From Eledone cirrhosa (lineage: Eukaryota), in the NCBI GenBank assembly GCA_964016885.1, contig OZ024740.1, positions 133,486,001-133,550,000 on the forward strand: DNA of 64,000 bases. The letters run 5' to 3'. The translations under genes were made by a program, and so were the position numbers. Shown here piece after piece: positions 8,667 through 60,845 of this stretch. Every line of letters begins with the position of its first letter. Position 1 is the stretch's first letter. The notes beneath the pieces were generated by a model that saw only the letters and a list, made by a program, of their open reading frames with translations, was not told the origin of the DNA and searched no databases.

Positions 8667-8720
8667 GAAATAGCCGTCAATACGGCTTGAGCTCTGCCGT
8701 CGGGGTCATACTTTTTCCTA
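8666..8720 (+). mobile_element. Fragment of the GAAACGGC fold-back family (3' half of an HHR)
   Basis: tagccgtcaatacggcttgagctctgccgtcggggtcatactttttccta closely matches 51035-51087; lies within (TA)n. Confidence 0.7.
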
Positions 8721-8744
8721 TATATATATATATATATATTTATG

Positions 8745-15576: not shown

Positions 15577-16097
<521 letters not shown>

Positions 16098-17790: not shown

Positions 17791-20700
17791 CTATAGTCTG
17801 ATGTAAAGTGAAGGCCCATTCACACGGGCTATTCTCGACACTTTCACCCATCTTTCATAGAAACGGCTGGGGTGCAGCACCTCTCTCTCCATCCTGATCC
17901 TTCTTCCGAAATGATATCGGAAGAAACGGACCAGTTGTTGGCCAGAGAGAAAGGTGTCTGACCTCAGTCCTTTCAGACGCGTCCACCATACAACCTCTTT
18001 CGCCATGGCTATTACGCACAGAAACACCGCCTCTCCTTCGTTTTTGAAGAGGGGAGGCGGCTTGATCGTTACAATAGACTCGGTGGTCAACCTGATCGGT
18101 CCCACCCTTGACAGCAGTTGTTCGACATAGCCCCACAGATCGGCAATGCCCGAGCAGTGTACCAATGCGTGTGCAACGGTTTCCTCGTCGCACACGCATC
18201 TGGGACAGATCTTTTTTGATGGGTCCCTACCCGGGCGCCCGTGTCTGTAGAGCCTTTCTCGAACGGGCAGAGCCCTTCTGTAGCATTGCCAGGCCAGGGA
18301 CCTCTGGAAGTTATCCATGGGTCCCGGGCTGAATGTCCTACCGAACAGGTTGGCCAGTTCGTCTTCCTCCATGCCTAGGGCTTCTCCGAGGGCGTCGTCG
18401 CACCTGCTAACCACCAGCCCTCTATAGAATGACGAGGTGGATTCTCCACTGACAGCCGGGTCCGCCTGCCAGAGAGGCATGAGCGCCTGGGCACACTCGG
18501 TGTGCCAGGCGCCCAGTTTTCTCGGTCTTTGCTTGACCCAGGATTGCAGCTCGGTGAGTGAGACGAGTCTGGGAAAGGCTCGCCTCACAAACGGGGCCCA
18601 CACCGGTTGACCGGAGAGGAATACCTGAAGGTGCCGTAGCCTTAATGCGTGTTTACGTATCATTAGCCACGGCATCCCCAGCCCTCCTTTCGAAGGGTGT
18701 TGACAGCAGATAGATCTCCTCACCATAGGAGCCCGCTTCTTCCAAAGGAATTGGAAGAGTGCGCGCTCCATTTTGGCGAGCGTTTCCCTTGGTCAAGGCA
18801 CAACGGTCAGGCGGTAGTAGATGACGGACGCTATATAAGTGTTCGCCACCTCCGCCCGACCTTTCAGGGACAGTTTGCACTCGGCCCACTTCTGGGTCAG
18901 TGCAAACACCCTGTTCGTCACCTCACCCCAGTCTTCTCCACCTGGAGGTCTGGTCCGAACCAGACCCCGAGCAACTTCACCGGGCCCTCCGTCCAGCGCC
19001 CGACGACGCCATCGGAGGGCATCGATCTGCCCCTCCACGTGCCGAGTTGCAGACCGATCGACTTGTCCCGGTTCAGCTTAGCCCCTGTAAACCTTTCGTA
19101 CTCCTCCAGTAAGGTGCCGATCGCCCCGATTTCCGAGGCCGTCGACACCATTACTGTTACGTCATAGGCGTAGGCTGACACCGCTTTCCGCAATCCCGGT
19201 TCCAACGGGATGCCCTGCAACAACTCCAACTTCCGCAGCAGTGGCTCTAGAGTCATTACATACAGAAGGGAGGAGAGAGGGCACCCCTGTCGGATGGACC
19301 GCGCGATTTCGAACGGCTCCGAGAGGTAGCCGTTCACCTTGACCCTAGAGCAGATGCGGCTGCTGTGCATGGCATTGATCCAGCCCCTGAAAACGGGTCC
19401 GAAGCCTGCCGCCGCTCGCACCGCATCCAGGTAACCATGGTCGACCCTATCGAATGCCTTAGATTGATCCAAGTTGATCAGGGCCCCACCAAAGCCGGGT
19501 TCGTTCCCAACCCTCTCTATGATGTATCACATAGGTGGAGGTTATCGTGGATGGACCTGGACGGGATAGCACATGTCTGCGCATCTCCCACCAGGTTGCC
19601 CACGACAAGTGCCAACCTCTTTGCTAGCACCTTGGCCAAAATCTGTAACTCTGTATTTAGCAGAGTTATGGGCCTGAAATTATTTATATCGTCCCCCTTG
19701 TTCTCGTCCTTCTTCACTAGCGTGACTACGCCCTTGGTCACAGCACAGGGAATTCTCCCGTTCTGTTGCCAGTTGCAGTAGACCGCCTCGAGGAGATCGG
19801 GGAACAAGTCCGGCATAGCTAGATATAGTTCGTATGGAAGACCATCGAGACCCGGGGATTTGCGTTTGCCGCATTGGCTCAGCACGTCTTCTATCTCAGC
19901 GGCTGAAATCGGCTCCTCGCAGGACTTCGTCTCCCTGTCCGAGAGACGCGGCAGGCCGTCGAGGTATGGACCGAAGTCCACGTCCCCAACCTGCCCCCCG
20001 CCCCTTCCGAACAATCCGGCAAAGTGCTTTTGAAAAGCCTCGCACATCTGCTTAGGTTCAAGGATCACCCGTCCATCCTGGTCTCGCAAAGACAGGATAG
20101 TGGATCTGCTCCCTCTTTTGGCTTCTGTCACGCGGGCCCAGCTAACTGCTTTGGTCCCCTCGTTTCCCAGAGCACGTATTTTGCTTCGGACGATGCAGCC
20201 TTCGTGTTTCGCGTCGAAGAACTGGCCCAGGGCCGTTCTCGACGCTAGCACTCTGGCCACGTCGCCGCTTCTAATTGCTTCTTCTACACTATCTACCAAC
20301 TCCCTTTCCTTCCCATTTCTATTGGAGGCTAACTCCTTACTAAATTCTATAGAGACTACTCTAATCTCTCTTTTGAGAGATCCCCACCACCTGCTGTTGA
20401 CGATGGCGCCCGTCAACCGCTCCTTAACTAAAGTGCTAATCCGGTCCCTGTAAGCCTTACTTGCCGGTAAGGACAAGTTGAGCATCCAGTAACCGGGTCC
20501 CTGTCTATGAGTTCTGTCAAGGTTGATCATGCAGGTCACTAACTTGTGGTCTGAATAGCCAAACATGCGCATTTTTGGACAACTTAAAAAGTCCTTATCC
20601 TTAATTCTAACTAAGAACCTATCTAGGTACGACCTAGATGATCCGCTACGATTTGCCCAATTCCAGGTTGGCGCAGTCGGAAAATCTAGTCGATATCTAT

Positions 20701-21226
20701 CGGCCAGGTCAAATCGACCAATTAACCCTTTGAGGCTATTACACCCCTCTCTATCGGGACAGGCCCCTACGTAGTCCCAGCGTGCATCTAGGATACCATT
20801 CCAGTCCCCCACTAATAGGAAGGAGCGGGACGTCCCTAGAAAAGTCTCCAGACGATGGAAGAAGTCCGGCCGCATTGACCCGAAAGGGCCGTAGGCGGCT
20901 ACCAACCTAAACGTTCCGCCTTTACCACTGCCAAGGTCCAGAACCACTAGTCGACCCTCCGGGTCCAAATGTACCATCTGTGTTGCGAGACCCAGATGTT
21001 TTTGCAGCAGAACGACAACTCCACCCCCCACCTCCGGGCTGACAGAGAGATACGTGCATCTCAAAGTCATCAAAGGTGGGGGCCAGCTGTCGCACGTTGC
21101 TGATCCGGGCCTCGCAAATAACCATCACATCTATACGTTGTGACCTGAGGTCATTTAGAAGCATTGCTTGCTTCCAAGTTGAGCCCAGGCCACGCGCTTT
21201 AAACAGCCTACTCTTAGCATAGCCAT
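17791..21226 (-). pseudogene. Tx1 ORF2: AP endonuclease + RT + CCHC finger
   Basis: LVGDWNGILD, SYLDRF, YSDHK (APE); RQGCPLS, YAYD (mutated YADD); CPRC..ETVAHALVHC. Confidence 0.92.
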
Positions 21227-21414
21227 GTTGGTGGTGAAGAGAAAAGGCACTTACCTCTCTGCGTCCCGGGTATCGGGCTGCACAATTTCCATTAGGGTGG
21301 GGGATGGGTTGTTGGGTGGGGTGGTGGTTTGTGGAAGTGTAGGGGCATCAGTGTGTTGTGTGGTTGGGGAGCTTGGAGTTGTGTGGGTGTTTTGGGAGGG
21401 GGTGGGGTAGTTTT

Positions 21415-22990
21415 TTAGGAGGACGCGGTTAATGGGCCCGACGCAGGGGGACCCACGTCCTCTTTAAAATTGTTTTTTAAAGTTTTATAGGTGTCCTGTG
21501 GGGCCTTAATCATTTTGAGGTGGGGGAAATCCCCTGCCTGGGTGAAGTTAGGCCCTTGTGTTTTTATTAGATTGTTGTTGTACACAATGTTTAACAGTTT
21601 TTTGTGTTTATGTATGTGTATGCATGTTTTTGTTTTTTGTGTGGTGTTTTTTGTTTGCTGTTGTTGTGAGCTCTTTTGTGTTGGTGTCAGTGTTATGTTT
21701 TGGGGAGGGGTTGTTTTCATTTGTGTGTCTGAGGTGTGTTTTCTTTTTTTTCTTTTGATTGTGTGGAAGTGCTCCTCCTCGTCTGACGACGAACTAGGGT
21801 TATCTTCCGCGTTGGAGGGGAGGGGTATATTTTCGGGTTGTGTTTGCGGTGCGGGTGTTTTGTAAATTGTTTTTGTTTTTTGAGTGGAGGGGATGGGTTG
21901 GACATTGTTTTGTTTTGGTTTGAGCTGTGGTGGTTGTTTTTGTAGTGGTGGTTGTGGTGATTGTGTTGGTTGCGCAGTTGTTGGTGGTGTAGGCAGGATT
22001 GGGGTTTTCTTATTAAGTTGGGGATAGACAGCCCTCAGGTGACCTCTGGTTCCGCAGAGGTAACACGAGGGCCGTCTACCCTCAACGGTAATGTTGATGA
22101 AGGTTAGATCATCCAGTATGACGCGTTCAGGGATCTGGGCGATCCTTTCGGGCCTCATTTGAACTACAAGTTCGAGGCTCGTTCCACTGAACGCGTCACC
22201 CGATGCCTTTCCCATGGACACCAGCATGTCATCCTCCAGGTCCAGGGAACCTGTCAAAACCCACCATATGTCCATAGTCGGCAGGATCGTGTGGATTTTT
22301 ATTTTTTGTGTTCTTCTACCCATGTACGTAGGGTAGAAGGTGTATGCGGTGGATGTGATTGGTTTGATGGACAGTTTCACTTCTGTGTCCCTGTCCTTCA
22401 TGAGAATGGATAGACTCCCGTAGAGTCTATCCTTCTGAATGAAGGTAATGTCCTTCATGACGTCTTTTAAAACCAGCTCTATCTCACTCTGTGATGGTTG
22501 AGCTGGTTTTTTACTTTTATTCGAGATTGTCCTAAACATGACCGTGTTTAGGAGTCTCTGGTTTTTTAGTTCCAGGGGGGGGGGGGGAATGGATTGTGAA
22601 TGAACAATTTTCTCCGTACACTATATATTTTTTCGCATCGGCCAGTAGCTCCTTCGCTTTGGTTATATCTACTGGCAGATAGTCGAGGGTTTTCCTTGTC
22701 GTCTTGGCGACTGAGAATTTTGTTTGTTTGTGTTGTTGTTGTCGTTGGTGGTGTTGTTGTTATCATTGTTGTTGTTGTCACAGTTATTGGTCTTGTTGTT
22801 GTTGTTATTGTTATTGGTGTTGTTTTCGTCCGTCGCATTGTTGTTGTTGTTGCTGTTGCTGGTGCCGCTGGTTCTTTGGGTTGTTGCCATGGCAACGTCA
22901 AGTTGTCGGTTAACAGGTGGAGAGAATTCTTCCTCTGGCTGACCTTTCTTCTTGACCTCTGCTACTGTGACAGTGGCAGGGGGAAGCTGT
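21415..22990 (-). pseudogene. Tx1 ORF1 (Asn-rich N-terminus, zinc knuckle, Pro/Thr-rich linker)
   Basis: CYLCGTRGHLRAVY knuckle; frameshift in the poly-C run at ~22575. Confidence 0.85.
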
Positions 22991-23002
22991 AAGTTTATCT
23001 TC

Positions 23003-24153
23003 CCCTTTCATAGAAACGGCTGGGGTGCAGCACCTCTCTCTCCATCCTGATCCTTCTTCCGAAATGATATCGGAAGAAACGGACCAGTTGTTGGCCAGAG
23101 AGAAAGGTGTCTGACCTCAGTCCTTTCAGACGCGTCCACCATACAACCTCTTTCGCCATGGCTATTACGCACAGAAACACCGCCTCTCCTTCGTTTTTGA
23201 AGAGGGGAGGCGGCTTGATCGTTACAATAGACTCGGTGGTCAACCGGATTGGTCCCACCCTTGACAGCAGTTGTTCGACATAGCCCCACAGATCGGCAAT
23301 GCCCGAACAGTGTACCAATGCGTGTGCAACGGTTTCCTCGTCGCACACGCATCTGGGACAGATCTTTTTCGATGGGTCCCTACCCGGGCACCCGTGTCTG
23401 TAGAGCCTTTCTCGAACGGGCAGAGCCCTTCTGTAGCATTGCCAGGCCAGGGACCTCTGGAAGTTATCCATGGGTCCCAGGCTGAATGTCCTACCGAACA
23501 GGTTGGCCAGTTCGTCTTCCTCCATGCCTAGGGCTTCTCCGAGGGCGTCGTCGCACCTGCTAACCACCAGCCCTCTATAGAATGACGAGGTGGATTCTCC
23601 ACTGACAGCCGGGTCCACCTGCCAGAGAGCCGTGAGCGCCTGGGCACACTCGGTGTGCCAGGCGCCCAGTTTTCTCGGTCTTTGCTTGACCCAGGATTGC
23701 AGCTCGGTGAGTGAGACGAGTCTGGGAAAGGCTCGCCTCACAAACGGGGCCCATACCGGTTGACCGGAGAGGAATACCTGAAGGTGCCGTAGCCTTAATG
23801 CGTGTTTACGTATCATTAGCCACGGCATCCCCAGCCCTCCTTTCGAAGGGTGTTGACAGCAGATGGATCTCCTCACCATAGGAGCCCGCTTCTTCCAAAG
23901 GAATTGGAAGAGTGCGCGCTCCATTTTGGCGAGCGTTTCCCTTGGGCAAGGCACAACGGTCAGGCGGTAGTAGATGACGGACGCTATATAAGTGTTCGCC
24001 ACCTCCGCCCGTCCTTTCAGGGACAGTTTGCACTCGGCCCACTTCTGGGTCAGTGCAAACACCCTGTTCGTCACCTCACCCCAGTTCTTCTCCACCTGGA
24101 GGTCTGGTCCGAACCAGACCCCGAGCAACTTCACCGGGCCCTCAGTCCAGCGC
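23003..24153 (-). mobile_element. Tx1 ORF2 3' fragment (B'), near-identical to 17852-19000
   Basis: ORF 22995-24155 repeats the peptide of 17791-19038; joined to copy B at a CTTTC microhomology. Confidence 0.92.
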
Positions 24154-26147
24154 AATCCCTACCAGGTCCATACACGACAACCTCCACCTCATGCGATACA
24201 TCATAGAGAGGGTAGGGTGTAAACCCGGCTTCGGTGGGGCCCTGTTCAACTTGGATCAGTCTAAGGCTTTCGATAGGGTTGACAATCGTTACCTGAATGC
24301 GGTGATCGAGGCGGCAGGCTTCGCACCCGTGTTCAGGGGCTGTATTGCTGCAATGCACAGCAGCAACATCAGCTCAAGGGTCAAGGTGAACGGCTACCTC
24401 TCGGAGCCGTTCCATATCATGCGATCCATCCGACAGGGATGCCCTCTCTCTTCCCTTCTGTACGTACTGACTCTCGAGCCACTACTGCGGAAGTTGGAGT
24501 TATTGCAGGGCATCCCTTTGGAACCGGGACTGCGAAAAGCGGCGTCGGCCTACGCCGACGACGTTGCAGTAATGGTGTCGAGCACCTCGCAAATCGGGCA
24601 CATCGGCACCTTACTGGAGGAATACGTAAAGTTCACAGGAGCGAAGCTGAACCAGGACAAATTCGTCGGTTTGCAACTCGGAACGTGGAGAGGCAAACCA
24701 ATGCCTTCCGATGGCGTCGTCGGACGCTCGACGGAGGGACCAGTAAAGCTGCTTGGGGTCTGGTTTGGTCGGGACCTCCAGGTGGAGAAGAACTGGAACG
24801 AGGTGACGGCCAAAGTGTTTGCCCTCAGGCAGAAGTGGGCCGAGTGCAAACTATCTTTGAAAGGTCGAGCGGAGGTGGCGAACACTTTTATAGCGTCTGT
24901 CATCTACTACCGCTTTACCGTCGTGCCTTGTCCAGCCAAAACGCGCAACAGAATGGAGCGCGCGCTCTTCCAATTCTTTTGGAAGAAACGGGCTCCTTTG
25001 GTGAGAAGATCCATCTGCTGCCAACACGCTTCAAACGGAGGGCTGGGGTTGCCGTGGCTGACGACGCACAAACACGCGCTCAGGCTGCGGCACCTCCTCG
25101 TATTCCTCACCAGCCAACCTGTGTGGGCCCCGTTCGTGAGGCGAGCCGTCCCACGACTCGTCTCGCTGACCGAGCTGCAGTCCTGGGTCAAGCAAAGACC
25201 GCTGAAAATGGGCGACTGGCATATCGAATATGCTCAGGCCCTCACAGTCCTCTGGTAAAATGACCCGGCGATCAGTGGAGACTCCACTTCGACATTCTAT
25301 TGAGGGTTTGTCCGCAGCAAGTGCGACGACACGCTCAGAGAAACTCTAGGCGTAGAGGAGGACGAACAGGCCAGTCTGCTCGGTAGGACCTTCCGCCCGG
25401 GACCAATGGACAACTTCCAAAAGTCCCTGGCCTGGCAGTGCTACCGAGGATCTCTACCAGTTCGAGACAAGCTCTACAGACACAGGCGCCCGGGTAGGGG
25501 TCCTTCGAAAAAGATCTGTCCGAGATGCGTGCGCGACGAGGAAACCGTCGCCCACGCATTTGTACACTGCCCGGGCGTTAGCGACGTGTGGGGCTATGTA
25601 GAACGACTTTTGTCGCGGGTGGGACCGATCCAATTGACCACCAAGTCCATTGTCATGATCAAACCGCCACTCTCCTTCAAAAACGCCGGAGAGGCGGTTT
25701 TTCCTATGGGTTATGGCTATGGTGAAAGAGGTTATATGGTGGACGTGTTAAAAGGGCTGAGGTCAGACACCTTTCTCTCCGGCGAGCAACTGATTCGTTT
25801 TTTCAAATATCATTTTGGAAGAAGAATCAATATGAAGAGAGAGGTGCTGTACCCCAGCAAATTTTATAAAAGGTGGGTGAATGTGGCAAAAATGGCCCGA
25901 GTGGTTGGGCCTTCTCTCTATATATGCCTGTAGGTTGAGGAAAAAGTGGAAGAGAAGAAGGGAGTACTCACTCTTGGTGCTCCCGGAGATGAGGGTTGTA
26001 CATTTTTTCGGGGTGTGTACAACCGCTGTGTAACGCCTCCCCTATTGGTGATATCAATTGTTATTTGTTATTTTATTATACCTGTATGTAAACTTTCCAT
26101 TTGTATTTGTCTCCTTCTTTTGTGCCCTTGTGGCTAATAAAAAATTT
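24151..26147 (+). mobile_element. Tx1 copy C: RT to 3' end
   Basis: ORFs 24053-25258 (YADD) and 25406-25933 (CCHC); AATAAA at ~26136 then (ATCT)n. Confidence 0.92.
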
Positions 26148-26225
26148 GATCTATCTATCTATCAATCCATTTATCTATCAGTTTTCACCCTCTCTATCTA
26201 TCTATCTATCTGTCTGTCTATCTAG
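26148..26225. repeat. Degenerate (ATCT)n tract between Tx1 copies
   Basis: gatctatctatctatc...tctatctatctatctatctgtctgtctatct. Confidence 0.85.
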
Positions 26226-26231
26226 GCAGAC

Positions 26232-27982
26232 ATGTCTGCCATTAGCTCTGCCACGCCCCCCAAGTCTGAAGACCAAAAAATAATTACAACAAAATTAGAC
26301 AACGAAACAAACAAGGAAAATGAAAAAACAAATGTTAAGGAAAATGAGCAAACGGAAAACAAACAAACAAAAAACAATACAAATAACAACAGGGCAACTT
26401 TCGCCCAGAAAACAAAACAATCCATAATATACACACCAATTGACTTAACTGCCGCCAGAGAAAAACTGGCCGAAGCGAAAAAACAAATAGTCTTGGGGGA
26501 GAACGGAATGTTTTCCATTAACTCCCCCCCAGAATTCAAGAAAGCCAGAACAGAGAGCACAGTTCTCTTCAGAACTATACTGAACCAGACAAGAAAGCCA
26601 GCACAGCCCAGCCAAATGGAAATAGAGTTGGTCCTAAAAGACTATATGAAGAATATTTTCTTCATACGAAAGGACCGACTCTATGTCATCATTTCGGTCC
26701 TAACAAAAGACAAGGAAACGGCGGAGAAGCTTTCCCTAAGCCCACTCTCATCGACAACATACAGCTTCTATCCCTCCTACATGGGTAGAAGAACACAGAG
26801 AATAAAAGTAAAAACAATGCTGCCCACAATGGACTTCTGGTGGGCTATTGCTGGCTTCATAGACATGGGCGAAGACACAATGCTGTCAATGAGGAAGGCA
26901 ACTGGAGATGCGTTCCTGGGAATGGGCCTCGACATACTAGTCCAAATGAGGCCCGAAAGAATAGCACAAATCCCGGATCGCATCTGGCTGGATGACCTTA
27001 CCCCAATAGACATAATTGTAGAGGGGAGAAGACCAGCATGCTATTTATGCATGGAAAGGGGACACGTTAAAGCTAACTTCCCGAAACGTATCCCCCAAAA
27101 AGGACTATTACCCACACCCACCACAAACAGTACACCAACACCACCCACCTCCAAAAATACACTAATACCACACACAGCAAACAAAATACAGACACCACCA
27201 ACCACAAACACAACACAAACATCACCACCACCATCACCAACCACAAGCACGACACAAACATTACCACCACCACCACAAAACCCATTCCAAACAAATAATT
27301 AAAAAAAACAGTAACAAATCTACCCCTCCCGCAAAAAAAAAACAACCACACAACACGTCCCTCCCACCTAGCGCTGAAGAGTTTCCCCCAACTTCTGAAA
27401 AAGAAGGAGGAGAAGCCTTCAGACAAGTTAAAAGAAAAAAAAGAAAACACACACCCAGCACACCACAAATAACCCACACACAAACACCAACTCCAATCAA
27501 AAACACCCCACCCTCAACAAACAAAAATAAATCTGCGCCTCCCCTCTCCGAAACATTGACAGCATCACAAAAAAAGACGTTGCAATACACATATATAAAT
27601 AAAGAAAACAAAAAACTGGTTAAATTAATATACAATAACCCTATGGTGCAGACCGAAGGGCCAAATTTTATCTCAACAGAGAACTTCACCCATTTAAAAA
27701 TGATAAAGGTCCCTCTGGACCTTTATCGTTCCTTAAAAGAACAATTTAGAGGGGACGTGAGCCCCCCCCCCCTGTTTAAAACCGTTAAATCGCGTCCTCT
27801 TGAATGATTTCCCCATAACCGCCCCTCTCCCTGACACAACTCCAAATACCCCAACCCCACCACACACAGGTACCCCCACACCACCACAAAACATCCCTCC
27901 ACCCAACACACCTGATGCCATGGAAATTACACAACCCGGAGAGGTAGGTGCTTTTCTTTCTTCACTTTCAACACCAAAATAG
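26232..27982 (+). pseudogene. Tx1 ORF1 (frameshifted in homopolymer runs)
   Basis: Homologous to B/E ORF1; CYLCMERGH knuckle. Confidence 0.85.
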
Positions 27983-27987
27983 ATCAA

Positions 27988-30900
27988 TTGAGAGTTGGCT
28001 GTTTGAACGCGCGTGGCCTGGGCTCAGCTTGGAAGCAAGCAAAGCTTCTAAGTGACCTCAGGTCACAAAGTATAGATGTGATGGTTGTTTGCGAGAGTCG
28101 GATCAGCAGCGTGAGACAGCTGGCGCCCGCCTTCGATGACTTTGAGATGCACGCATCTCTCTGTCAACCCGCAGACGGGGGGGGGGGGGAGTTGCCATAC
28201 TGCTGGATAAACGTCTGACTCTCGACGTACAGATTGTTCACTCGGACCCGGGGGGTCGATTACTGGTGCTGGACATCGGAGGCGGTGAAGGCGGGGCTTT
28301 CAGACTGGTCGGTCTTTATGCTCCCTTCGGGGCGGAAAGAGCCTACTTCTTCCAGCGTCTGGAGACTTTTCTAGGAACGTCGCGTTCCCTGCTTTTAGTG
28401 GGGGACTGGAATGGAATCCTAGATGTGCGTTGGGACTATGCAGGGGCATGTCCCGATAGAGGGGGGTGTAGCAGCCTCAAGGGGTTACTCGATCGATTCG
28501 ACCTGGTCGATAGATTTCGACTAGATTGTCCAACTGCGCCAACCTGGACCTGGGCAAACCGCAGTGGACAAGCTAGATCGTACCTAGATAGGTTTTGGGT
28601 TAGAAGTAAGGATAGGGACGTATTTAGTTGTCCAGAACTGATCATGGTTGGCTATTCAGATCACAAATTAGTGACCTGCGTGGTCAACCTTGATAGAACG
28701 CATAGACAGGGTCCCGGTTACTGGAAGATGAACTTGTCCTTGCCGACAAAGAAAGATTACAGGAACCGGATTAGTAGCTTAGTTAAGATGCGGTTGACGG
28801 GAGCGATCGTCAACAGTAGGTGGTGGGTATCTCTAAAGAGAGAGATTAGAGTAAGTTCGATAGGTTACAGTAAGGAACTAGCGGCGAATAGAAATAGGAA
28901 GGAAAGGGAGTTAACAGATAAACTAGAAGAGGCGATTAGGAGCGGAGACGTAGCCAGAGTGTTAGCGGCGAGAACGGCGTTGAGCCAGTTCTTTGACGCG
29001 AAGCACGAAGGCTGCGTTGTCCGAAGTAAAATACGTGCTTTAGGAAACGAGGTGACCAAAGCTGTTAGCTGGGCCCGCGTGACAGAAGCCAAGAGTGGGA
29101 TTAAATCCACCATTCGGTCTTTGCGAGACCAGGATGGACGGGTGATCCTTGAACCTGAGCGGATGTGCGAGGCCTTTCAAAGGCACTTTACTCGACTGTT
29201 CGGAGGGGGCGGGGGGCCGGACGGGGATGTGGACTTCGGTCCATACCACGACGGTCTACCGCGTCTTTCGAGCGGCGAAGCGGAGTGCTGCGAAAGGCCA
29301 ATCACAGCCACTGAAATCGGGGAAGCGCTCAGCCAATGCAGCAGACGCAAATCCCTGGGTCTCGATGGTCTACCATACGAACTTTATTTAGCTATGCCGG
29401 TCTTGTTCTCCGAACTCCTCGAGGCTGTCTATTGCAACTGGCAACAGAACGGGAGAATTCCCTGTTCTGTGACCAAGGGCGTGGTCACGCTAGTGAGGAA
29501 GGACGAGAGCAAGGGGGACGACTTAAGTAACTTTAGGCCCATAACTCTGCTGAATGCAGAGTTACAGATTTTGGCCAAGGTGTTGGTGAAGAGGTTGGCG
29601 CTTGTGGTGGGTGGTTTGGTGGGAGACGCGCAGACATGCGCTATCCCGTCCAGGTCCATTCACGACAACCTCCACCTCATGCGATACATCATAGAGAGGG
29701 TTGGCAACGAACCCGGCTTTGGTGGGGCCCTGATCAACTTGGATCAATCTAAGGCGTTCGATAGGGTCGACCATGGTTACCTGGATGCGGTGCTAGCGGC
29801 GGCGGGCTTCGGACCCGTTTTCAGGGGCTGGATTTCTGCCATGCACAGTGGCAACATCTACTCTAGGATTAAAGTAAACGGCTACCTCTCGGAGCCGTTT
29901 CAAATCACCCGGTCTATCAGGCAGGGGTGCCCCCTCTCCTCCCTTCTGTACGTATTGACTCTCGAGCCACTGCTGCGGAAGTTGGAGTTGCTGCGGGGCA
30001 TACCCCTGGAACCGGGATTGCACAAAGCGGTCTCGGCCTATGCCGACGACGTAACAGTAATGGTGGCGGACGCCTCGGAAATCGGAGCGATCGCCACCCT
30101 ACTGGAGGAATACGAAAGGCTGACGGGGGCTAGGCTGAACCGGGACAAGTCAGTCGGTTTGCAACTCGGAACGTGGAGGGGCAAACCGATGCCGTTAGAC
30201 GGTGTCGTCGGGCGGTGGACGGAGGGCCCGGTGAAGCTGCTCGGGGTCTGGTTCGGACCGGACCTCCAGGTGGAGAAGAATTGGGGCGAGGTGACGAGCA
30301 GGGTGTTTGCGCTGACCCAGAAGTGGGCCAAGTGCAAACTATCACTGAAAGGTCGGGCGGAGGTGACGAACGCTTACATAGCGTCCGTCATCTACTACCG
30401 CCTGACCGTCGTGCCTTGCCCTAAGGAAAAGCTCACCATCATGGAACGCATGCTCTTCCAGTTCCTCTGGAAGAAGCGGCCTCCCATGGTGAGGAGATCC
30501 ATCTGCTGCCAGCACCCTTCGAAAGGAGGGCTGGGTATGCCGTGGCTGTTGATGCGTAGGCACGCATTGAGGCTACGGCATCTACAGGTATTCCTCAACG
30601 GTCAGCCGGTGTGGGCCCCGTTTGTGAGGCGAGCCTTCCCACAGCTCGTCTCGCTCACCGAACTGCAATCCTGGGTGAAGCAAAGACCGAGAAAACTGGG
30701 CAACTGGCACACCGAGTGTGCCCAGGCGCTCACGGCTATCTGGCAAGCGGACCCGACTATCAGTGGAGAATCCACCTCGACATTCTATAGAGGGTTGGTG
30801 GCTAGCAAGGGCGACGACACCCTTGGAGAGTCGCTAGGCATGGAGGAGGACGAACTGGCCAGCCTGTTCGGTAGAACTTTCGGCCCGGGACCCATGGACA

Positions 30901-31420
30901 ACTTCCAGAGGTCCCTAGCCTGGCAGTGTTACCGAGGGGTTCTGCCCGTTCGAGAAAAGCTCTACAGACACGGGCGCCCGGGCAGGGATCCCGCGAAAAA
31001 GATCTGCCCCAGATACGTGCGCGACGAGGAAACCGTTGCGCATGCACTGGTACACTGGCCGGGCGTTGCCGTTTTTAGGGCTACGTCGAACGACTGCTGT
31101 CGCGTGTGGCGCCGATTCGATTAACCGCGGAGTCTGTGGTGAACATCAAACCGCCTCCTCCCTTCAGAAATAAAGCAGAGGCGGTCTTTCTGTGCGTAAT
31201 AGCCATGATGAAAGAGGTTGTGTGGTGGACGCGCCTGAAAGGTCTGAGGTCGGGTGACTTTCTCTCCGGCCATCACCTGGTTTACTTCTTCCGATACCAC
31301 TTCGGAAGAAGGATCAGGATGGAGAGAGAAGTGCTTGGCCCCAGACAGTTTTATGAAAGGTGGGTGAAAGAAGCGAGAATGGCCCGTGTAAATGGGCCTT
31401 CTCTCTACATTGTTCTGTAG
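27988..31420 (+). pseudogene. Tx1 ORF2 APE-RT-CCHC, frameshifts near 28185 and 31075
   Basis: GCLNARGL, VCESR, GDWN, SDHK, KAFDRVDH, QGCPLS, YADD. Confidence 0.95.
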
Positions 31421-31650
31421 GTGAAGAAGTGAAGAGGAAAGGGGGAGCACCTCCTCTCTGGGCTTCCCCCGCGAAAAGAGTTGCACACTTTTCGGGGGTA
31501 TGTGCAATCCCCAACACGCCCCCTCCCTTTTGAGGACTTTTTTTTGTTATATTATTATTGTTATTCCTTTTTTCTTTACTCGATTTATGTAAACTCCCCC
31601 ACTGTGTAAATGTCCCCTTCTTTTGTGCCCTCGTGGCAAATAAATAGAAA

Positions 31651-31662
31651 TTTATCTGTCTG

Positions 31663-31711
<49 letters not shown>
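31651..31711. repeat. (ATCT)n tract
   Basis: Direct reading; separates copies D and E. Confidence 0.95.
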
Positions 31712-31712
<1 letters not shown>

Positions 31713-33178
31713 CATACGATGGACACATGTGCTGAGATCGCTCGGTAAGTTTTGTTTAAATTCATCCGGAAATTGTAAACTGTGAACTTTCATTTTTGTA
31801 CCATTTTGTAGAGGGACTGCCAGGTCAAACTTTGATCTGGTCAGTCTCTCAAAATATTCTACGCCTTTAGGCGAAATAGTTAAACCAAAAAAAAAGTTTT
31901 TTCTAGTTGAAAAGTCAATATTTTTTTTAAATGGCCGAAGCTTCTTCACCAAAATTCGAAGGAGGAAAGGGGAAGATAAACTTACAGCTTCCCCCTGCCA
32001 CTGTCACAGTAGCAGAGGTCAAGAAGAAAGGTCAGCCAGAGGAAGAATTCTCTCCACCTGTTAACCGACAACTTGACGTTGCCATGGCAACAACCCAAAG
32101 AACCAGCGGTACCAGCAACAGCAACAACAACAACAATGCGACGGACGAAAACAACACCAATAACAATAACAACAACAACAAGACCAATAACTGTGACAAC
32201 AACAACAATGATAACAACAACACCACCAACGACAACAACAACACAAACAAACAAAATTTGACCTTCGCCGAGACGACAAGGAAAACCCTCGACTATCTGC
32301 CAGTAGATATAACCAAAGCGAAGGAGCTACTGGCAGATGCGAAAAAATATATAGTGTACGGAGAAAATGGTTCATTCACAATCTATCCCCCCCCCCCCCG
32401 GAACTAAAAAGCCAGAGACTCCTAAACACGGTCATGTTTAGGACAATCTCGAACAAAAGTAAAAAGCCAGCTCAACCATCACAGAGTGAGATAGAGCTGG
32501 TTTTAAAAGACGTCATGAAGGACATCACCTTCATTCAGAAGGATAGACTCTACGGGAGTCTATCCATTCTCATGAAGGACAGGGACACAGCAGTGAAACT
32601 GTCCATCAAACCAATCACATCCACCGCATACACCTTCTACCCTACGTACATGGGTAGAAGAACACAAAAAATAAAAATCCACACCATCCTGCCGATTATG
32701 GACATATGGTGGGTTTTGACAGGTTTCCTGGACCTGGAGGATGACATGCTGGTGTCCATGGGAAAGGCATCGGGTGACGCGTTCAGTGGAACGAGCCTCG
32801 AACTTGTAGTTCAAATGAGGCCCGAAAGGATCGCCCAGATCCCTGAACGCCTCATACTGGATGATCTAACCTTCATCAACATTACCGTTGAGGGTAGACG
32901 GCCCTCGTGTTACCTCTGCGGAACCAGAGGTCACCTGAGGGCTGTCTGTCCCCAACTTAATAAGAAAACCCCAATCCTGCCTACACCACCAACAACTGCA
33001 CAACCAACACAATCACCACAACTACCACTACAGAAACAACCACCACAGCTCAAACCAAAACAAAACAATGTCCAACCCATCCCCTCCACTCAAAAAACAA
33101 AAACAATTTCCAAAACACCCGCACCGCAAACACAACCCGAAAATATACCCCTCCCCTCCAACGCGGAAGATAACCCTA
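31712..33178 (+). mobile_element. Tx1 copy E: 5'UTR + 5' part of ORF1, near-identical to copy B
   Basis: 31965-33178 is the reverse complement of ~23007-21795; intact CYLCGTRGHLRAVC. Confidence 0.92.
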
Positions 33179-36100
33179 TTGTGGTCCAGTTTCCAATTTT
33201 TGCCTCTGTCACTCGGGCCCAGCTAACAGCTTAGGCTCCCTCGTTACCCAGAGCACGTGTTTTCTCCTGACAAAGTAGCCCTCGTGCTTCGCGTCAAAGA
33301 ACTGGTCTAGGGCCGTTCTTGACGCCAGCACGCCGGCCATGTTGCCACTCCTAATCGCCTCTTCTACTATATCTATCAATTCCCTTTCAGTTCTATTCCT
33401 ATCTGATGCTAATTCCTGACTAAAACCTATCGATTCTATTCTAATTTCTCTCTTGAGAGAGCCCCACCACATGCTGTTGACAATTTCCCCCGTCAACCGC
33501 TGCTTAACTACAGTGCTAATCCGCTTACTGTAAGCTTTGATTGTCGGTAAGGACAAGTTTAGCTTCCAGTAACCGGGTCCTTGTCTATGGGTTCTATCAA
33601 GGTTGACCACTCCGGTCACCAATTTGGGATCCGAATAGTCAACCATGAACATTCGTGGACAGCTTAATATGTCCCTATCCTTATTTCTAACTAGGAACCT
33701 ATCTAGGTACGACCTAGATGTCCCGTTTCGATTAGTCCACGTTCACATTGGCACAGTCGGAAAATCTAGTCGATATCTATCGGCCAGATCAAATCGGCTG
33801 ATTAACCGTTTGAGGCTAATACACGCCCCTCTATCGGGACCTGACCCTACATAATCCCAACGTGCATCCAGGATACCATTCGAGTCCCCTACTAAAATCA
33901 AGGAGCGAGACGTTCCCAGAAAAGACTCTAGGCGCTGGAAGAAGTCCGGTCGCAGTGTCCCAGATGGGGCATACACTGCCACCAGCCTGAAGGCTCCACC
34001 TTCAGTACTGCCGACGTCTAGAACCACCAGTTGGCCCCCTCCGAGTCCAGGTGTACCTTCCGTGTTGCGAGGCCCAGGTGTTTTTGCAGCAGAACGATGA
34101 CCCCGCCCCCACCCCCCGGCTGACAGACAGATGCATAGATCTCAAAGTCGTCGAAGAGGGGGGCCAGTTGGTGCTCGCTGCTGATCCTTGACTCGCAAAT
34201 AGCTATCACATCCATTCTGTGCGACCTGAGGTCATTTAAGAGTTTGCCCTGGTTCCAGGACCTTTATAGGCCGCGCACATTTAAACATCCAACTCTTATA
34301 AAAGCCATGTTGGTGGTGAAGTGTTTAGATTGGAGAAAAAGTACTGTACTTCTTCTGGGGACCAGGCTGCACAATTTCTATAGGGGTGTCGGCGGAGTTG
34401 TTTGGTGGGGTGGTGGTTTGGGGTGTGGTGGGATGTCAGTGTCTGGTGGGGTGGGGGTTTATTTGGGATGGGCGGGGTGTCTGGGGTGGTGGTGGGGAAA
34501 CATTTCAAGAGGACGTGGTTGCTAGGTCTAGCACAAAGGTTCCACATGTCCTCGGGAAAGTTCTGTTTGAGCATTGCGTAGGTGTACCTTGGGACCCTAA
34601 TCATTTTTAAATGCAGTTTAGTCGCCGCGTTGGTGGACATTTTCTCTTCGATTTCCACCGAAGGGTCTTTGTCTATTGTTTGCCCAAGGGTTTTGTTGTT
34701 TGTGTTGATGTATGAATACTGCTTTTGTTGTGTTGTGTTTGTTTTTGTTTGTTGTTCTTGTGTGTGTTTGCGTTTTGTAGTATGTGTTATGTTTTCGGGA
34801 GGGGTGGGTTTTTTGTTTGTGATGTTTGTTCTGTTTGTGCTGGTGGCTGTGTGTCTGTTGTATTTTTGTTGATGTGGTGCCTTCTTTTCTTTCTTTTTAC
34901 CGGTTGAAGGTGTTCTCCCTTGTCGTCACTGGGTGACGTTGATAAGGGGTCCTCGTCCGTGTTGCTGGGGAGGGGTATATTTTGGGGTTTTGTTGTGGTT
35001 GCTTTTGTATTTGTTTTAGGTGGGGGGGTTGGGTGGGACAGTGTCTTGTGCTGTTATTTTTTCGTGTTGTTGTTGTTGTGGTGGTGGTGGTGGTTGTGTT
35101 GTTGTGTGTGGGGTGGGCAGAAGCATCTTTTTTTTTGGGGGGGGGGGGCATTTAAAAGTGGGACAGGAAGCCCTCCGGTGACCACTTCTTGAACAGTGGT
35201 AGCATGAAGGCCGCCTGCCCTCAACAGAAATGTTTATGAAGGGGACTTCATCCAGGACACATGCTGCGGTATTCTTGCTATCCGTTCTGGTCTCATTTGG
35301 ACCAGAACTTCAAGGCTATTGCCACCGAATACGCCCCCGGTGGATTCGCCTATCGAAAGGATTGTGTCCTCATCTTCTAAGAATCCCGTTAGCACCCACC
35401 AAGTGCTCACAATTGGCCTGATGCCCGAGATTCTTATCTTTTGAGTTCTTTTTCCCAAATATGTGGGGAAAAAGGTGTATGCTTTGGTTACAATTGGCGA
35501 CACACAATATTTCCGTGCCGCCAATTCATCTTGCATTAAAACAGATATTCTTCCATACAGTTTCCCTTTCTGTATGAAAGCGATATCCTTCCAGGCACTA
35601 CTTAAGACCAGCTCAATTTCGCTTTGGGACAATTGAGCCGGTTTCCTAGTCGCGTTCGAAACTGCCCTAAAAATTACGGTTCTGAGGACTGTGTCCCTTC
35701 TAATTTCTTCAGGGGAGGTAATTGTGAACTCCCCACCTTCCCCGAAACTTACACAATTCCTTGCTTCTTTCAGCAATTTCTTGGCATTCAAGATGTCTAG
35801 TGCCTTGTATGTCTGCGTTTCTCGAACCGCCTGTTCGAAGGAGACTGCAGCTGTGGGTCCGTTTTCTTTCGTGTTGTTATCATTGTTGTTGTTGTTATTC
35901 GTGTTGGTTTGCTTTTTTCCTTTGTTGGTGTTGTCATTATTGCTGTTGTCGGTTGTGTGGTTATTGTCATTGTTACTGTTGTTGGTTGTGTTGTTATTGC
36001 TTTGTTATTCTTGTTTGTGTAATTGTTACTTTTGGGGTTTTCACCAATTTCCACATTTTTTCTTTTGATTCCGTGGTGTCTTTTGCGGGAGTGAGGAGGG

Positions 36101-41790: not shown

Positions 41791-42041
41791 GAAGTATTCC
41801 TGTAGGAAAGGTAAAGGAAAAGAGAGTGCTCTATGTAGGCTTCAGAGCTTTTTAGTTACGTAATAAACAACATAAGATTATTATTTCATTTACCAGTGGT
41901 ATCTTCAAGAGAGATATGTCTGACTTCATTCATCAGAAAGAATAATATTCTTTCTGATGAATGAAGACAGACATAAATATCTGTCTTCAAGATACCACTG
42001 GTAAATGAAATAATGATCTTATGTTGTTTATTACATAACTA
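41791..42041 (-). mobile_element. Fold-back mini-element (hairpin 41853-42041) with a decayed HHR in each arm
   Basis: ttt CTGATGA a TGAAGACAGA..TCTGTCTTCA a GATA CCACTGG TA; GAAA reads GATA in both arms. Confidence 0.7.
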
Positions 42042-42055
42042 TATATATATATATC

Positions 42056-45000
42056 CGGAGGGTGTAACTAGGAGTTACTGCAGGTTCACCCGGGTGAGCA
42101 CTCGATGTTTAGGTTCACTTCTGTGATGATGTGTAGAGCTATACAGAGTGTAAAATATAGAAAGGATAAAAAGGACGATAGATTATTCCTTCATTGCATT
42201 TATTGATAGGTGACGCGCGTTTCGCCACTGATCAGCTCAAGGTTCGATCTATATCGATCCTACCCGACTCAATAATCGGCAGCTCGACGGACCCTCTTAA
42301 AATGCTATAAGAAAATGAAATACATGCTATGTGGTAAAGTCAGTGTTTCAAGAGTTTGACAAAATGAGATGTTTTGATTGGTGGGAAGGATCAAGGCGAT
42401 GTACAGGTCGGTGGATGTACGATCGGGGGATGAGGTGGGCTGTGGTGTGATAGTGGTGGGTTGGCTTTGGCGTGTAGAGTATGTGGGGGTGGATGTGATG
42501 ATATGGTGGTGGTTATGGTTATTTAGTGGGATGGGCTGTGGTATGAGGTTAGTGGATTGTCAGTAGACGGGTTGGCGTGTGGGTGGTGGTGTGGTAGTGG
42601 TGCCGTTGTCTATGGTAGCGGCGTTTGTGGTGGTGTGGTGGATGTATTGGTGGCGTCAGGTCCTTACATAGATACATAGCTAGACGCTCTTCGTCTGACA
42701 GATACTTTGTATATACGTATACGCACACACATATATGTATATATGTGCACATATATTGTTGTATAAACACACACAACACAAAACACATACGCACATCCTT
42801 GCCCACACATATCGACATACGCTCATACACAGCCATATGTATATGTACACAGATACACATATATGGAGAGTGGGTGAGTATCGGTGGGGGTCGCGAACGA
42901 CAGAGGTGGGGGGAAGGTGAAAGGCAATGTAGAAGGTGTTTTACATATATACATACACATACATACATATGGGTATGGGCACATGGACTCACACTCATGT
43001 ATGCAAAATATACACATACACACTCACACACGTATACTCACACATATATATACATATATATATATACACACACATGTACAGACAACACACACATACACGC
43101 ACATATACACATACATGCACATATATGCGCACACCTACACATACAGTCAGATTCACCCATATACATATATGTAGACGTACACATACACACACGTACATAC
43201 ACATACAAATATACACACACATACACATACGCATACACGTACATATATATATATACAGATATACATATACACACATATAGATATATGTATACACATGTGT
43301 TCACATACACACACACACACATACATATAAGTATGCGTACACGCACGCACACTTAAACGCCCGTATGTGTAAAAATACTTACACACAGACACACACACTA
43401 TTGTTGGTTGGGGAGTGGAGGTATGTGTTGTCCGTGTTGATGAAGTATGGAGTTGTGTTTTGTGGTGGTGGTGGTGGAGTTGTGAGGGACAAAAATATAT
43501 ATACCGGATCGAATACCGGTTAAAAGGTGACATAGGAAACGCGGGGGAGTAGCGTTTATGGACGTACGGCGATGTGTATTGTGGACATGGTGATGGTGGT
43601 GCTGGGGTGATATGTTCGACAAGATGATTACATGATCAGAGGTTACGGTGTGTTATAGGGTAGGCAGACGGGGGGTGGGGGATATATAATACAGTCGATC
43701 TAGGAGCGAGGGATGATATGTGTTGATGATGTTAATGATAATGATTGTTGAAGTATGTGGATGTATCTAGTGGTGGCGGTGGTTGTGTGTGCGTGCGACA
43801 GTACAATTACAGTGTCGAATTTAGCGTGGGGTTGTATGTTAGGGTAGATAGAGGGAACATGTGCGGATGAGGTTGTAGACGTGTATGGTAGGCATATGAT
43901 GATGTGTGGTGTGGTGGTGGTGGCGATGGTGTGATATGATCGAGATTGTATTTACAAGGTCCCTTGTCATTCTGGATTGCAAGGTAGAACGTATCATAGG
44001 ATACAGATCTAATACGATGTTGCAACGGTGAGGTGTATATGTTGATGTGAATTTTGGTGGTGGTGATGGTGATGTGTGCGGCATGATATACAAATGCGGG
44101 CTTAGAAAAGGTTACATGGAGTTCAATACAATAAGTTCATTGAGGTAGGCGGTTTTGAGACGGGGTATAGGTGGTGATTAATATGGTGTCATGGTTAGTG
44201 TGATTTTTGGTGTGGGTTATGTATGCGGCATGATATACAAAATACGGGCTTACATATGGTTAAATTCAATGCAATGAAATAAGATAAAGTGAAGTTAGAT
44301 TATAATTAAAGTTCGTTGAGATGGGCGATGGCGATACGGGGCAGCTGTGGTTATTATTATGGTGGGTCATGGTTAGTGCGTATTCCTCCCGCGAAAGTTT
44401 GTGCAGAAAAGGTGTGCATCCTAATGTGTCTGCAATTGACAATTATGTCCCACCTATAGTTTATGGCGGAATCAAGTTTAATTATTTCCGCCGCCTCAGC
44501 TAGGCATAATCCGCAGTGGTTTCTGTCACTGGGGATGTATGCCACGCGTCTTTTTACTGACCACGAAATCTGGGGTTCAATATTCCTGTCCTTGACGTCC
44601 CAGATCAGATCGGCCAGTTTTGTTTGGGGTCGTTTCGATCTATGTTTGAAGGAGCTTCTGTGGTTATACCAGCGCTCCTTAAACGTAGTGGATGTCGCAC
44701 CTATATATGAGTACTCCCTATTGCCGGCTGTGACATCGCACCGGTAAACAATATTCTTAACGAGGCACTCCCCGTTTAGTGGGCATTCGTCTCGTTTCTG
44801 GCAGTTGCATTTGGGTGTAACCGGTGCGGTGCAACAGTGGCGGTTGGTGTCGTTCGGTGTTGGTGTGGTGTGTGTGTTGTTGTGTTGTGTGTGTGGTTTC
44901 GTTCTGGGTTGTGGTGGTGGTTTGTTGAGGGGAAACCATGTGTTTTTGTATTTTTGCCCTATTATTGTGTGCTATTGTGTGGCCTAGGTTTGGTGCTGTG

Positions 45001-50723: not shown

Positions 50724-51087
<364 letters not shown>

Positions 51088-51109
51088 TATATATCTATAT
51101 ATATATATA

Positions 51110-53368: not shown

Positions 53369-54199
53369 ATATATATATATATATATATATAGTTTTAATA
53401 TAGATGAGATTCTACAGGACTAGAACTGTTTCATTCATTAGAAATCATCAGGAATCTGGGTATCAAAAAATAAATATGGTATTTATAGGTCTCTACAAGT
53501 TGTAGGAGAGGGTGGGGAGTGGGATGGGTGCAGGTCATTGGTTGATAGAAAAGGGAATTCATTAAAAGCTAATTCTACAAAGCTATAGTTTATTTTTATT
53601 TATTTATGTTTTTAGAGTAACAAGGGCAGACAGAATTCTATAAACAGGTTCCGGATGGCATACCATTCCTTGTCATTAAGTTTCTCTTAAGCTAACAGGT
53701 GTCTATAAAATCAGTGGGGGGTCAGTCATGGTCGATAGAATTAAAGAAAAGGGAGATTCTTTAAAAGCTAAAGTCATTAAGGTTCTACTAAGTGACAAAG
53801 GCCTAGAGAATTCTGCAGACAGATTCAAAATACTGAGTGCATATCTTACTATTATCTTCGAACTTCTCTTAAACTAATCAACTATATGCCAAAAATCAAC
53901 AGACACATTCACAAAAAAACAAAAAACCACATACTCACTCACACACTTACGCTACTGAACAAACTCTCTGAACACTGCCCGAACTGCATGCACAAGAACT
54001 TTGCAACTTTCAAACACTTTAAGCCAGTGTTAAAGCCCGATGGCTAAAAACGACCTCCCCCTATTGGCCCCTATACCTCCTCCCCACCCTACCCCCACCC
54101 CTCCTCAACCTGAAATACGGCCACTATGGTTATGTGAGTCCCTCTTTCGTATCTACATTTTCTGCCTGTAGAGGTGTCTTTATGTGCCTGCGTATATGC

Positions 54200-56060
<1,861 letters not shown>

Positions 56061-56554
56061 GCGTAAGTGTGTGAGTGAGTATGTGGTTTTTTGTTTTTTT
56101 GTGAATGTGTCTGTTGATTTTTGGCATATAGTTGATTAGTTTAAGAGAAGTTCGAAGATAATAGTAAGATATGCACTCAGTATTTTGAATCTGTCTGCAG
56201 AATTCTCTAGACCTTTGTCACTTAGTAGAACCTTAATGACTTTAGCTTTTAAAGAATCTCCCTTTTCTTTAATTCTATCGACCATGACTGACCCCCCACT
56301 GATTTTATAGACACCTGTTAGCTTAAGAGAAACTTAATGACAAGGAATGGTATGCCATCCGGAACCTGTTTATAGAATTCTGTCTGCCCTTGTTACTCTA
56401 AAACATAAATAAATAAAAATAAACTATAGCTTTGTAGAATTAGCTTTTAATGAATTCCCTTTTCTATCAACCAATGACCTGCACCCATCCCACTCCCCAC
56501 CCTCTCCTACCACTTGTAGAGACCTATAAATACCATATTTATTTTTTGATACCC

Positions 56555-56605
56555 AGATTCCTGATGATTTCTAATGAATGAAACAGTTCTAGTCCTGTAG
56601 AATCT
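56555..56605 (+). ncRNA. Type I hammerhead ribozyme; inverted copy at 53407-53457
   Basis: AGATTC CTGATGA t TTC taat GAA t GAAA CAG ttctagtc CTG TA^ GAATCT; TATAAATA at 56525-56532. Confidence 0.8.
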
Positions 56606-56687
56606 CATCTATATTAAAACTTTTATACTCTGCTATGTATTGAGTACCTTACTTACTGTGGTTACCTCCGATTCAACCCGGAATAAC

Positions 56688-56756
<69 letters not shown>

Positions 56757-59835: not shown

Positions 59836-59912
<77 letters not shown>

Positions 59913-59934
59913 TATATATATATATATATATATA

Positions 59935-60490
59935 TAGGCAAAAGTATGACACCGAATTGATGCGCGACGCCGGGCGACCGCACGCAGTGAACTGCGAATG
60001 GCGCCACCGGCGTCTGACGCGTCGTCGGTCTCAGTCTAATATTTGCGCCGCGACCAATGCGAAGGCCGACCGTATCGACGCGGTCTGTTGGGACCGGGCG
60101 GGAAGACGGATCGACGACGGCGACGAACGCGGCCCGCGTTTTGTAACCCGACTCCCGGAATACATGCAACTGCGGCCGCGATCGCAGGTCGCACCCGGGA
60201 GTTACAAAACACGTGCGGCGTTCGTCGCCGTCGTCGTTCCGTCTTCCCGCGCGGTCCCAACAGACCGCGTCGACACGGTCGGCCTTCGCATTGGTCGCGG
60301 AGCAAATATTAGACTGAGATCGACGACGCTTCAGACGCCGGCGGCGCCGTTCGCAGTTCGCTGCTCCGGTCGCGCAGCGTCGCGCATCAATTCGGGGTCG
60401 TACTTTATCCTATTACCCACTCTACTACCCTAAGTATTGAGTACTCAGGCGCGTTATGGACCATCTGGTTCCTTACCACAATTCCTTTGT

Positions 60491-60491
<1 letters not shown>
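59935..60491 (+). mobile_element. GC-rich ~480-bp fold-back joined to the GAAACGGC-family tail
   Basis: 59935-~60155 is inverted at ~60195-60412 (roughly 90% by eye); family sequence starts at tcggggtc (60392). Confidence 0.85.
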
Positions 60492-60547
<56 letters not shown>

Positions 60548-60549
60548 AA

Positions 60550-60845
<296 letters not shown>

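Follow-up and report, generated by a model that had tools for sequence, protein, structure and literature searches.

Within a 64,000-nucleotide stretch of the Eledone cirrhosa genome (the window), one copy of an abundant repeat carries GC-rich foreign sequence up to the position at which a hammerhead ribozyme is predicted to cut. In this study, we asked where this sequence came from and how it became joined to the repeat at that position. The reading we prefer, at a probability of roughly 0.6, is that a fragment of 18S rRNA (nt 176-417) was joined to the 3' end of a Penelope-like element (PLE) at the predicted hammerhead cut by an RtcB-type ligation that preceded retrotransposition.

Self-comparison of the window revealed an inverted repeat at 59935-60413 (86% identity over 487 columns including gaps, E 7e-162), which agrees with the duplicated hairpin of about 480 bp described in the first-pass annotation. 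That annotation took the entire segment to be duplicated. This is true of 59935-60413 but not of the last ~78 nt of the tail (60414-60491), which are single copy. The foreign segment has 235 nt, 64% GC and 43 CpG per 236 nt, and the unpaired centre of the hairpin lies at 60159-60194. As had been claimed, the foreign sequence substitutes for all family sequence upstream of 60392-60394 when compared with the copies at 8700, 15704 and 50995, while the part 3' of 60392 matches other family copies within the window at 86-91%. Only the 3' product of the hammerhead is retained in this copy. Because 18S and element share three nucleotides at the junction, spanning the predicted cut, the junction of this copy alone is placed only to within 3 nt. 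The features are listed in the table.

Table. Features of the 18S-tail join and its flanks (positions in the window).
Feature	Position	Strand	Basis or remark
(TA)n target microsatellite, left flank	59836..59936	.	repeat content
Inverted copy of the hammerhead 3' product, tail-less, mirroring 60394-60410	59937..59953	-	same end point in most family-A copies
18S rRNA nt ~212-417, inverted arm	59954..60158	-	left arm 89.9% to L012
18S rRNA fragment, nt 176-417	60159..60393	+	L012 = SSU_rRNA_eukarya, 792 bits
18S/element microhomology, 3 nt; predicted hammerhead cut between 60393/60394	60392..60394	+	family comparison
First part of the predicted hammerhead 3' product (3' strand of helix I), as far as the tail-less arm extends	60394..60413	+	self-comparison, family hammerhead
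Family-A tail, one arm only	60414..60491	+	86-88% to 15704-15803 and 50895-50995; 22,065 matches genome-wide
(TA)n, then (AG)n, right flank	60492..60545	.	repeat content

The architecture of the hairpin (tailed arm, tail-less inverted arm and (TA)n target) is ordinary for the repeat, here called family A, since an inverted truncated arm and a one-sided tail are standard in PLEs; its content is not ordinary. Family letters are labels coined in this analysis. A reading of the hairpin as a Helitron, MITE or DNA transposon was discarded given the hammerhead, the one-sided tail and the RT/EN ORF. Between the arms, 219 aligned columns contain 20 substitutions and 6 gap columns. Divergence is 9% between the two arms and about 10% between the arms and present rDNA; the segment is therefore old genomic DNA. 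Decay by CpG transition had been proposed for several mismatches. Such transitions exist, but they are a minority: a script flagged seven, of which five are clear once one indel-edge and one family-part column are dropped, against 11 transversions, and the share of C/G transitions at CpG (5/7) is not enriched (p 0.36). CpG decay is not the main source of the arm mismatches.

The first question is the identity of the donor. When 60190-60392 was searched against the genome, 40 scored candidates yielded 46 matches; examination of all of them showed that most are rDNA units. Compared with the genome's own SSU rRNA, the insert is 89-90% identical to nt 176-418 of L002 and L012, and extends over nt 176-417 in the right arm and about 212-417 in the left. 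L012 and L284 match RF01960, the former from its first base. The 18S gene is 2.9 kb long in a genome of 3.0 Gb. Judged by these alignments, the donor is host 18S gene sequence. The earlier candidates, rDNA spacer or microbial DNA, thus give way to the 18S gene itself, and the GC-rich part is multi-copy only as 18S rDNA, not as the normal upstream sequence of a subfamily. The assembly contains two full 18S types (L002 and L012) that are only 88% identical, and the window insert is nearer to the L002 type.

The carrier is abundant: the genome contains 39,377 exact matches to a 26-nt family-A pattern and 22,065 to its tailed end. Among 30 sampled loci, an inverted arm was flagged in 19, and the 5' half of a type I hammerhead survives in only six. 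Four of these (L074, L089, L100 and L102) have U3-A8 cores with helix I of 4-5 bp, a long helix II and helix III of 4-5 bp, U3-A8 being a described hammerhead variant of PLEs (PMC4209133). The full hammerhead of untruncated copies places the cut where the first-pass annotation had predicted it. The fold of L074 shows three helices, with an energy that is not unusual (z -1.39; 17 of 200 shuffles as good). Hammerhead helices and core were found in family A plus seven other repeat families. No Rfam family reached its gathering score within the window, where the family-A copies lack the full core, and scans at E-value level returned microsatellite and hairpin noise, with no ribozyme for families C or E.

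In L287, an RT ORF and a GIY-YIG-like ORF (YRDD, YIG) end 770 nt upstream of a family-A hammerhead. Pfam gave no match on the family ORFs; among Atlas look-alikes (0.95-0.96), RVT_1 is present in 12-17% of members and GIY-YIG in 23%. On this sequence evidence the carrier is an EN+ PLE with a type I hammerhead (U3-A8) in its pseudo-LTR. Motif comparison indicates that it has Hydra-clade PLE motifs, namely a CxCx5C linker, CxxC and CxH in the L287 EN, (TA)n targets, and DKT in a piece of the L176 ORF that overlaps the L287 protein at 17 of 18 positions. No Cys pair (CCHH) was read between the VIY and YIG motifs of L287. RWK is a further motif of the Hydra clade; L287 is 5'-truncated, and RWR is seen in the related element L288. 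The Hydra-clade PLEs, in the sections of PMC8557442 consulted, share the C-terminal GIY-YIG, DKT, CxCx5C, the lack of CCHH, the hammerhead and the (TA)n target, and likewise have an inverted truncated arm and a tail on one side. The tail is about 80 nt here and 30-40 nt in that clade. These sections call the function of the hammerhead in EN-bearing PLEs unclear and do not describe capture of host RNA at it.

The window contains other repeats of this type. Four more family-A copies lie at 8670-8721, 15645-15803, 50895-51092 and 60661-60845; three have short fold-backs and none has the hammerhead core. A family-B element (53391-56691) has canonical hammerheads at 56561 and 53451, arms with 100% complementarity (343 and 222 nt) that flank a 2-kb microsatellite, and a tail on the right arm only. 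A fold-back copy of the hammerhead-like family G, with a variant GAAA box, occupies 41850-42060, and at 17800-33200 a LINE with AP endonuclease and RT is present as copies that are nested and inverted.

The join in the window is not a single event. An 18S set was gathered from the genome search, 13 further regions and an exact-pattern search (35 matches, every place examined). Sixteen ETS-less 18S fragments covering the region of the window insert could be placed; L064 and L066, whose ends are too decayed to place, were set aside. Fourteen of the 16 end at nt 411-424, and L073 and L146 run on. The partners of the 14 are seven hammerhead-family tails, two family-C 5' ends, four tRNA-like SINE heads and one that was unplaced. 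'SINE' and 'V2/ES3' are labels that we take to apply in this analysis. Nucleotides 411-424 form a predicted unpaired linker following a long helix. Except for L067 (one unclear case) and the microhomology cases, the ends follow U or C, and several donors end in C (nt 412, 417 and 420). The clustering reveals an apparent recurrent break point in 18S rRNA at nt 411-424. In poly(A) RNA of a relative with a different 18S expansion, the site is crossed by 3,666 reads of one run and no 18S end peak occurs there among the rows listed, so a constitutive break is unlikely in that relative. For 28S rRNA, searched around its presumed break region, none of 19 dispersed fragments lay on hammerhead tails (40 of 308 candidates scored). 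A tandem array of ~48-bp units derived from 28S rRNA was seen at L346 (G000:C20:2436123-2438183).

All seven 18S fragments on hammerhead families, found by searching from the donor side, start at the predicted cut: L001 (window) and L072 in family A, L004, L005 and L021 in family B, L068 in family D and L006 in family X. An eighth, L307, found with a narrower pattern, is a separate copy with the window's junction; L308 was dropped because its upstream sequence is without 18S. The microhomology of the window copy, which recurs in L307, would suit chance recombination of a PLE copy with an old 18S pseudogene. However, five of the seven joins (L072, L004, L005, L068 and L006) and the U6 joins described below have the same kind of start without microhomology, and the age indicated by the arm divergence speaks against an assembly chimera. 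Either accident has a negligible chance of being correct.

It was also considered that an element had inserted in rDNA at this 18S site, with later mobilization of the 18S flank by a read-through transcript (5' transduction). PLEs that target 28S precisely are known (PMC8557442), and a full-length insert from a cut RNA would likewise start at the ribozyme site. Nevertheless, ETS upstream and 18S resuming downstream were absent in all eight chimeric loci checked, the carrier families sit in (TA)n, the 18S site is common to at least four hammerhead families and to unrelated repeats, and the U6 cases require RNA ends. In addition, L024 and L028 begin at mature 18S nt 1 without ETS, which points to processed RNA as the source. 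Such a DNA-level origin is very improbable. The two copies just named (1295-1705 in each) are young: their 18S nt 1-411, which adjoin tRNA-like SINE heads, are 100% identical to present rDNA.

A second donor is U6. The first such copy to be noted here, L180, which has U6 on both arms, came from a screen of family-A tails with non-native upstream bases. A census of U6 gave 112 matches; among the 100 listed, 75 lie outside the C19 gene array, and all of these were examined and represent 73 elements. Fourteen were placed on hammerhead-bearing families and, among the matches listed, 13 of the 14 start at the predicted cut: L180 and L207 (family A), L252 (B), L211 and L238 (B variants), L218 and L243 (D), L216, L231 and L232 (F), L257 (R), L217 (M) and L215 (K, within one base). 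L229 is the exception, with U6 joined ~226 nt upstream of the hammerhead. Eight of the 13 placements were made by BLAST offset and five by eye; L215, L217 and L243, like L006 of the 18S set, rest on diverged relatives (79-86% identity), and the hammerhead model for family K is weak. L252 and L231 contain full-length U6.

The U6 ends are uniform. Five U positions are present in 13 of 13 joins at the cut (two arms with one substitution), compared with 30 of 60 other U6 elements among the matches listed (Fisher p 4.7e-4), a class that acceptor-derived T may inflate. The five positions match the mature cyclic-phosphate end of U6. No filler bases occur at the seven 18S and 13 U6 joins. U6 acceptors gave no match to PLE ORFs, a comparison in which acceptors far upstream are visible only via the ORFs tested. 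Other arrangements of U6 were also observed. The gene array (G000:C19:31778863-31830972) has a period of ~1.8 kb and at least 25 units, some with internal deletions; 19 copies (within L194-L266) were flagged on the same short 3' segment of a SINE/LINE-like repeat with 0-8 variable bases between; and three (L201, L209 and L234) have another common fixed acceptor.

These joins must be compared with the background of 5' ends in the family. Among the 22,065 family-A tails, 408 lack the native base at each of the four positions preceding the cut; a control offset six bases downstream gave 101. The cut is thus only a ~2.5-fold peak for 5' ends generally. The four-base filter passes about 0.32 of foreign joins, and therefore at most ~6% of family-A tails start at the cut; natives carrying one extra base account for 37 of the first 100 listed, which brings the share nearer to 4%. 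All three unambiguous donor-first family-A joins are at the cut, for which our own arithmetic on the 6% bound gives p near 2e-4. With 7/7 for 18S and 13/14 for U6 against at most ~6% of A tails, heterologous joins are strongly enriched at the predicted cut, and this supports the earlier suggestion that the hammerhead 3' product was joined to another RNA and then retrotransposed.

The first 30 non-native family-A loci comprise 13 natives with an extra base, four stem switches, five placed directly on (TA)n, six with filler or short inverted bits and two with donors. Filler or short inverted bits occur in six of 15 donor-less starts; L134, L138 and L154 were dropped as an unrelated repeat. The corresponding screen of family B (167 matches; 30 loci and 13 places examined) gave mainly point mutants and fold-backs, with few donors. 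In the donor-less copies L272, L165, L175, L043 and L044, the two arms abut at the predicted cut or no more than a few bases from it, which suggests that cut RNA serves as a template.

Hammerhead cleavage leaves a product with a 5'-OH. The joins can be accounted for as follows. Element RNA would cleave itself to give a 5'-OH at 60394; the site is predicted from structure, and cleavage is suggested by the copies and chimeras that start there. The 18S rRNA would break within the single-stranded linker at nt 411-424, where the ends cluster, probably leaving a cyclic phosphate; mature U6 would need no break, as it carries such an end by nature. By analogy with known ligations, RtcB may then join the 18S or U6 end to the ribozyme-cut end. 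The PLE protein would nick (TA)n and copy the chimeric RNA from two start sites, at the end of the tail and ~80 nt upstream. With one start for each end of the target, two 5'-truncated cDNAs would join head to head and produce the observed hairpin, presumably by twin priming. The asymmetry in arm length is not decisive for twin priming, as deletion at the centre of the palindrome yields the same. Thereafter the arms decayed independently of each other, by ~4.5% each. The separate steps have precedents, in the portions of the papers available: the 3' end of mature U6, five U with a cyclic phosphate, is ligated by RtcB to 5'-OH RNA (PMC6789731), RTCB joins ribozyme-cut fragments in trans in cells (10.64898/2026.05.26.727988), and two RT start sites define the PLE tail in vitro (PMC11167929).

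It is also possible that no chimeric RNA was formed and that the PLE RT ran off the ribozyme-cut 5' end onto the free 3' end of an abundant RNA, such as broken 18S or U6. The same fixed acceptor site would be expected from such a jump, and an R2-type RT adds a non-templated A that may pair with a 3' U tract and leave no trace (PMC8857657). Some copies look like products of jumping. In L052 the family-B cut is joined to a 98-nt exact copy of DNA located 1.3 kb away, in L176 the cut is joined to the element's own ORF on one arm only, and L255 has U6 with different acceptors on its two arms. SINE heads, which are presumably triphosphate-ended, carry 18S and U6 donors as well. On the other hand, a U tract of five in 13 of 13 U6 joins, 18S donors that end in C, and a junction that is the same on both arms in L001, L005, L006, L021, L072, L180 (one substitution) and L231 do not fit well with a jump, and U6/L1 chimeras in human cells arise by ligation according to the available part of PMC6789731. 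We consider template jumping less likely than ligation as the source of these joins, but a strong rival. The flush joins, the constant U tract, the C-ended 18S donors and the identical two-arm junctions favour ligation before reverse transcription. The joins suggest that the hammerhead cuts in living cells, and other RNAs were probably ligated to its cut end and brought into the genome with it.

A hammerhead 5'-OH is not required for such chimeras, since 18S and U6 are also joined to SINE heads and to sites in families C and E where no hammerhead was found. Family C was rejected as a hammerhead family, as its copies simply begin at the junction. Its copies (L023, L062 and L104-L133; 2,956 matches) have a fixed start base after ATGT-type repeats, at which 18S was taken twice. 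A hammerhead site was predicted for family E, and no such site was found there. This family (L220, L256 and L291-L305) resembles PLEs in its inverted arms, and U6 was joined to it twice, independently, at one U-A step, which is possibly an unrecognised cleavage site.

Related chimeras have been described, and we compared them with ours on the available portions of the papers. The closest are U6/LINE-1 pseudogenes made by RtcB ligation (PMC6789731), in which U6 with five U is likewise flush to a retroelement RNA and retrotransposed, by the cyclic phosphate and 5'-OH chemistry proposed here. In those chimeras, truncation of L1 varies and shows no specific site, whereas here the acceptor is a predicted ribozyme cut, a PLE is the carrier and 18S also serves as donor. 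In the catalogue of 28S rRNA/LINE-1 and ncRNA/LINE-1 chimeras (PMC11838501), recurrent rRNA fragments of ~250 nt are fused in sense, as here, but no acceptor base is fixed, and the portion available does not mention 18S, ribozymes or Penelope. In the anole Poseidon PLE in vitro (PMC11167929), both strands are cut and extended, the target is AT-rich and two RT start sites explain tailed and tail-less ends, as in our case; however, uncleaved RNA was the dominant template and no RNA-seq reads ended at the hammerhead, whereas here copies and chimeras start at the cut. Engineered trans-ligation with split GFP (10.64898/2026.05.26.727988) joins ribozyme 5'-OH ends by RTCB in cells. That system is synthetic with both ends ribozyme-made, and the joins reported here may be its natural heritable counterpart. 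Tailless retropseudogenes (PMC5322556) are RNA copies truncated at single-stranded hot spots, as here, but are primed directly on target DNA without a retroelement tail. Animal retrozymes (10.64898/2026.07.22.740005) are hammerhead-bearing PLE derivatives but form tandem self-repeats, and the available part of that 2026 preprint does not mention ligation, snRNA or capture. In Terminons (PMC6431247), host sequence is likewise captured by PLEs, but between neighbouring elements at telomeres. In the part available, a review of RTCB names U6/LINE-1 as the only pro-transposon ligation (PMC13247085). Host RNA joined at a PLE hammerhead site is not described in the literature searched, which left outside most subscription papers, supplements, Repbase and Dfam.

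The joins are a ribozyme-defined variant of chimeric retrocopy formation in PLEs, which is real, recurrent and mechanistically informative. The chances are about even that PLE hammerheads cleave in the germ line, that the 5'-OH product is a trans-ligation acceptor for RtcB and that the element writes the chimera into the genome. With the same reserve, the tails could record, heritably and to the base, where ribozymes were active and RNA ends were broken, and could be a route to new non-autonomous elements. The 20 donor-first joins at the predicted cut, which are spread over several unrelated families and cover U3-A8 as well as minimal palindromic variants, provide genomic evidence for cutting in vivo and for retrotransposition of the product. 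With a fixed acceptor base, ligation can be tested directly against template switching. The same donor-first screen could map active ribozyme sites in any PLE-rich genome.
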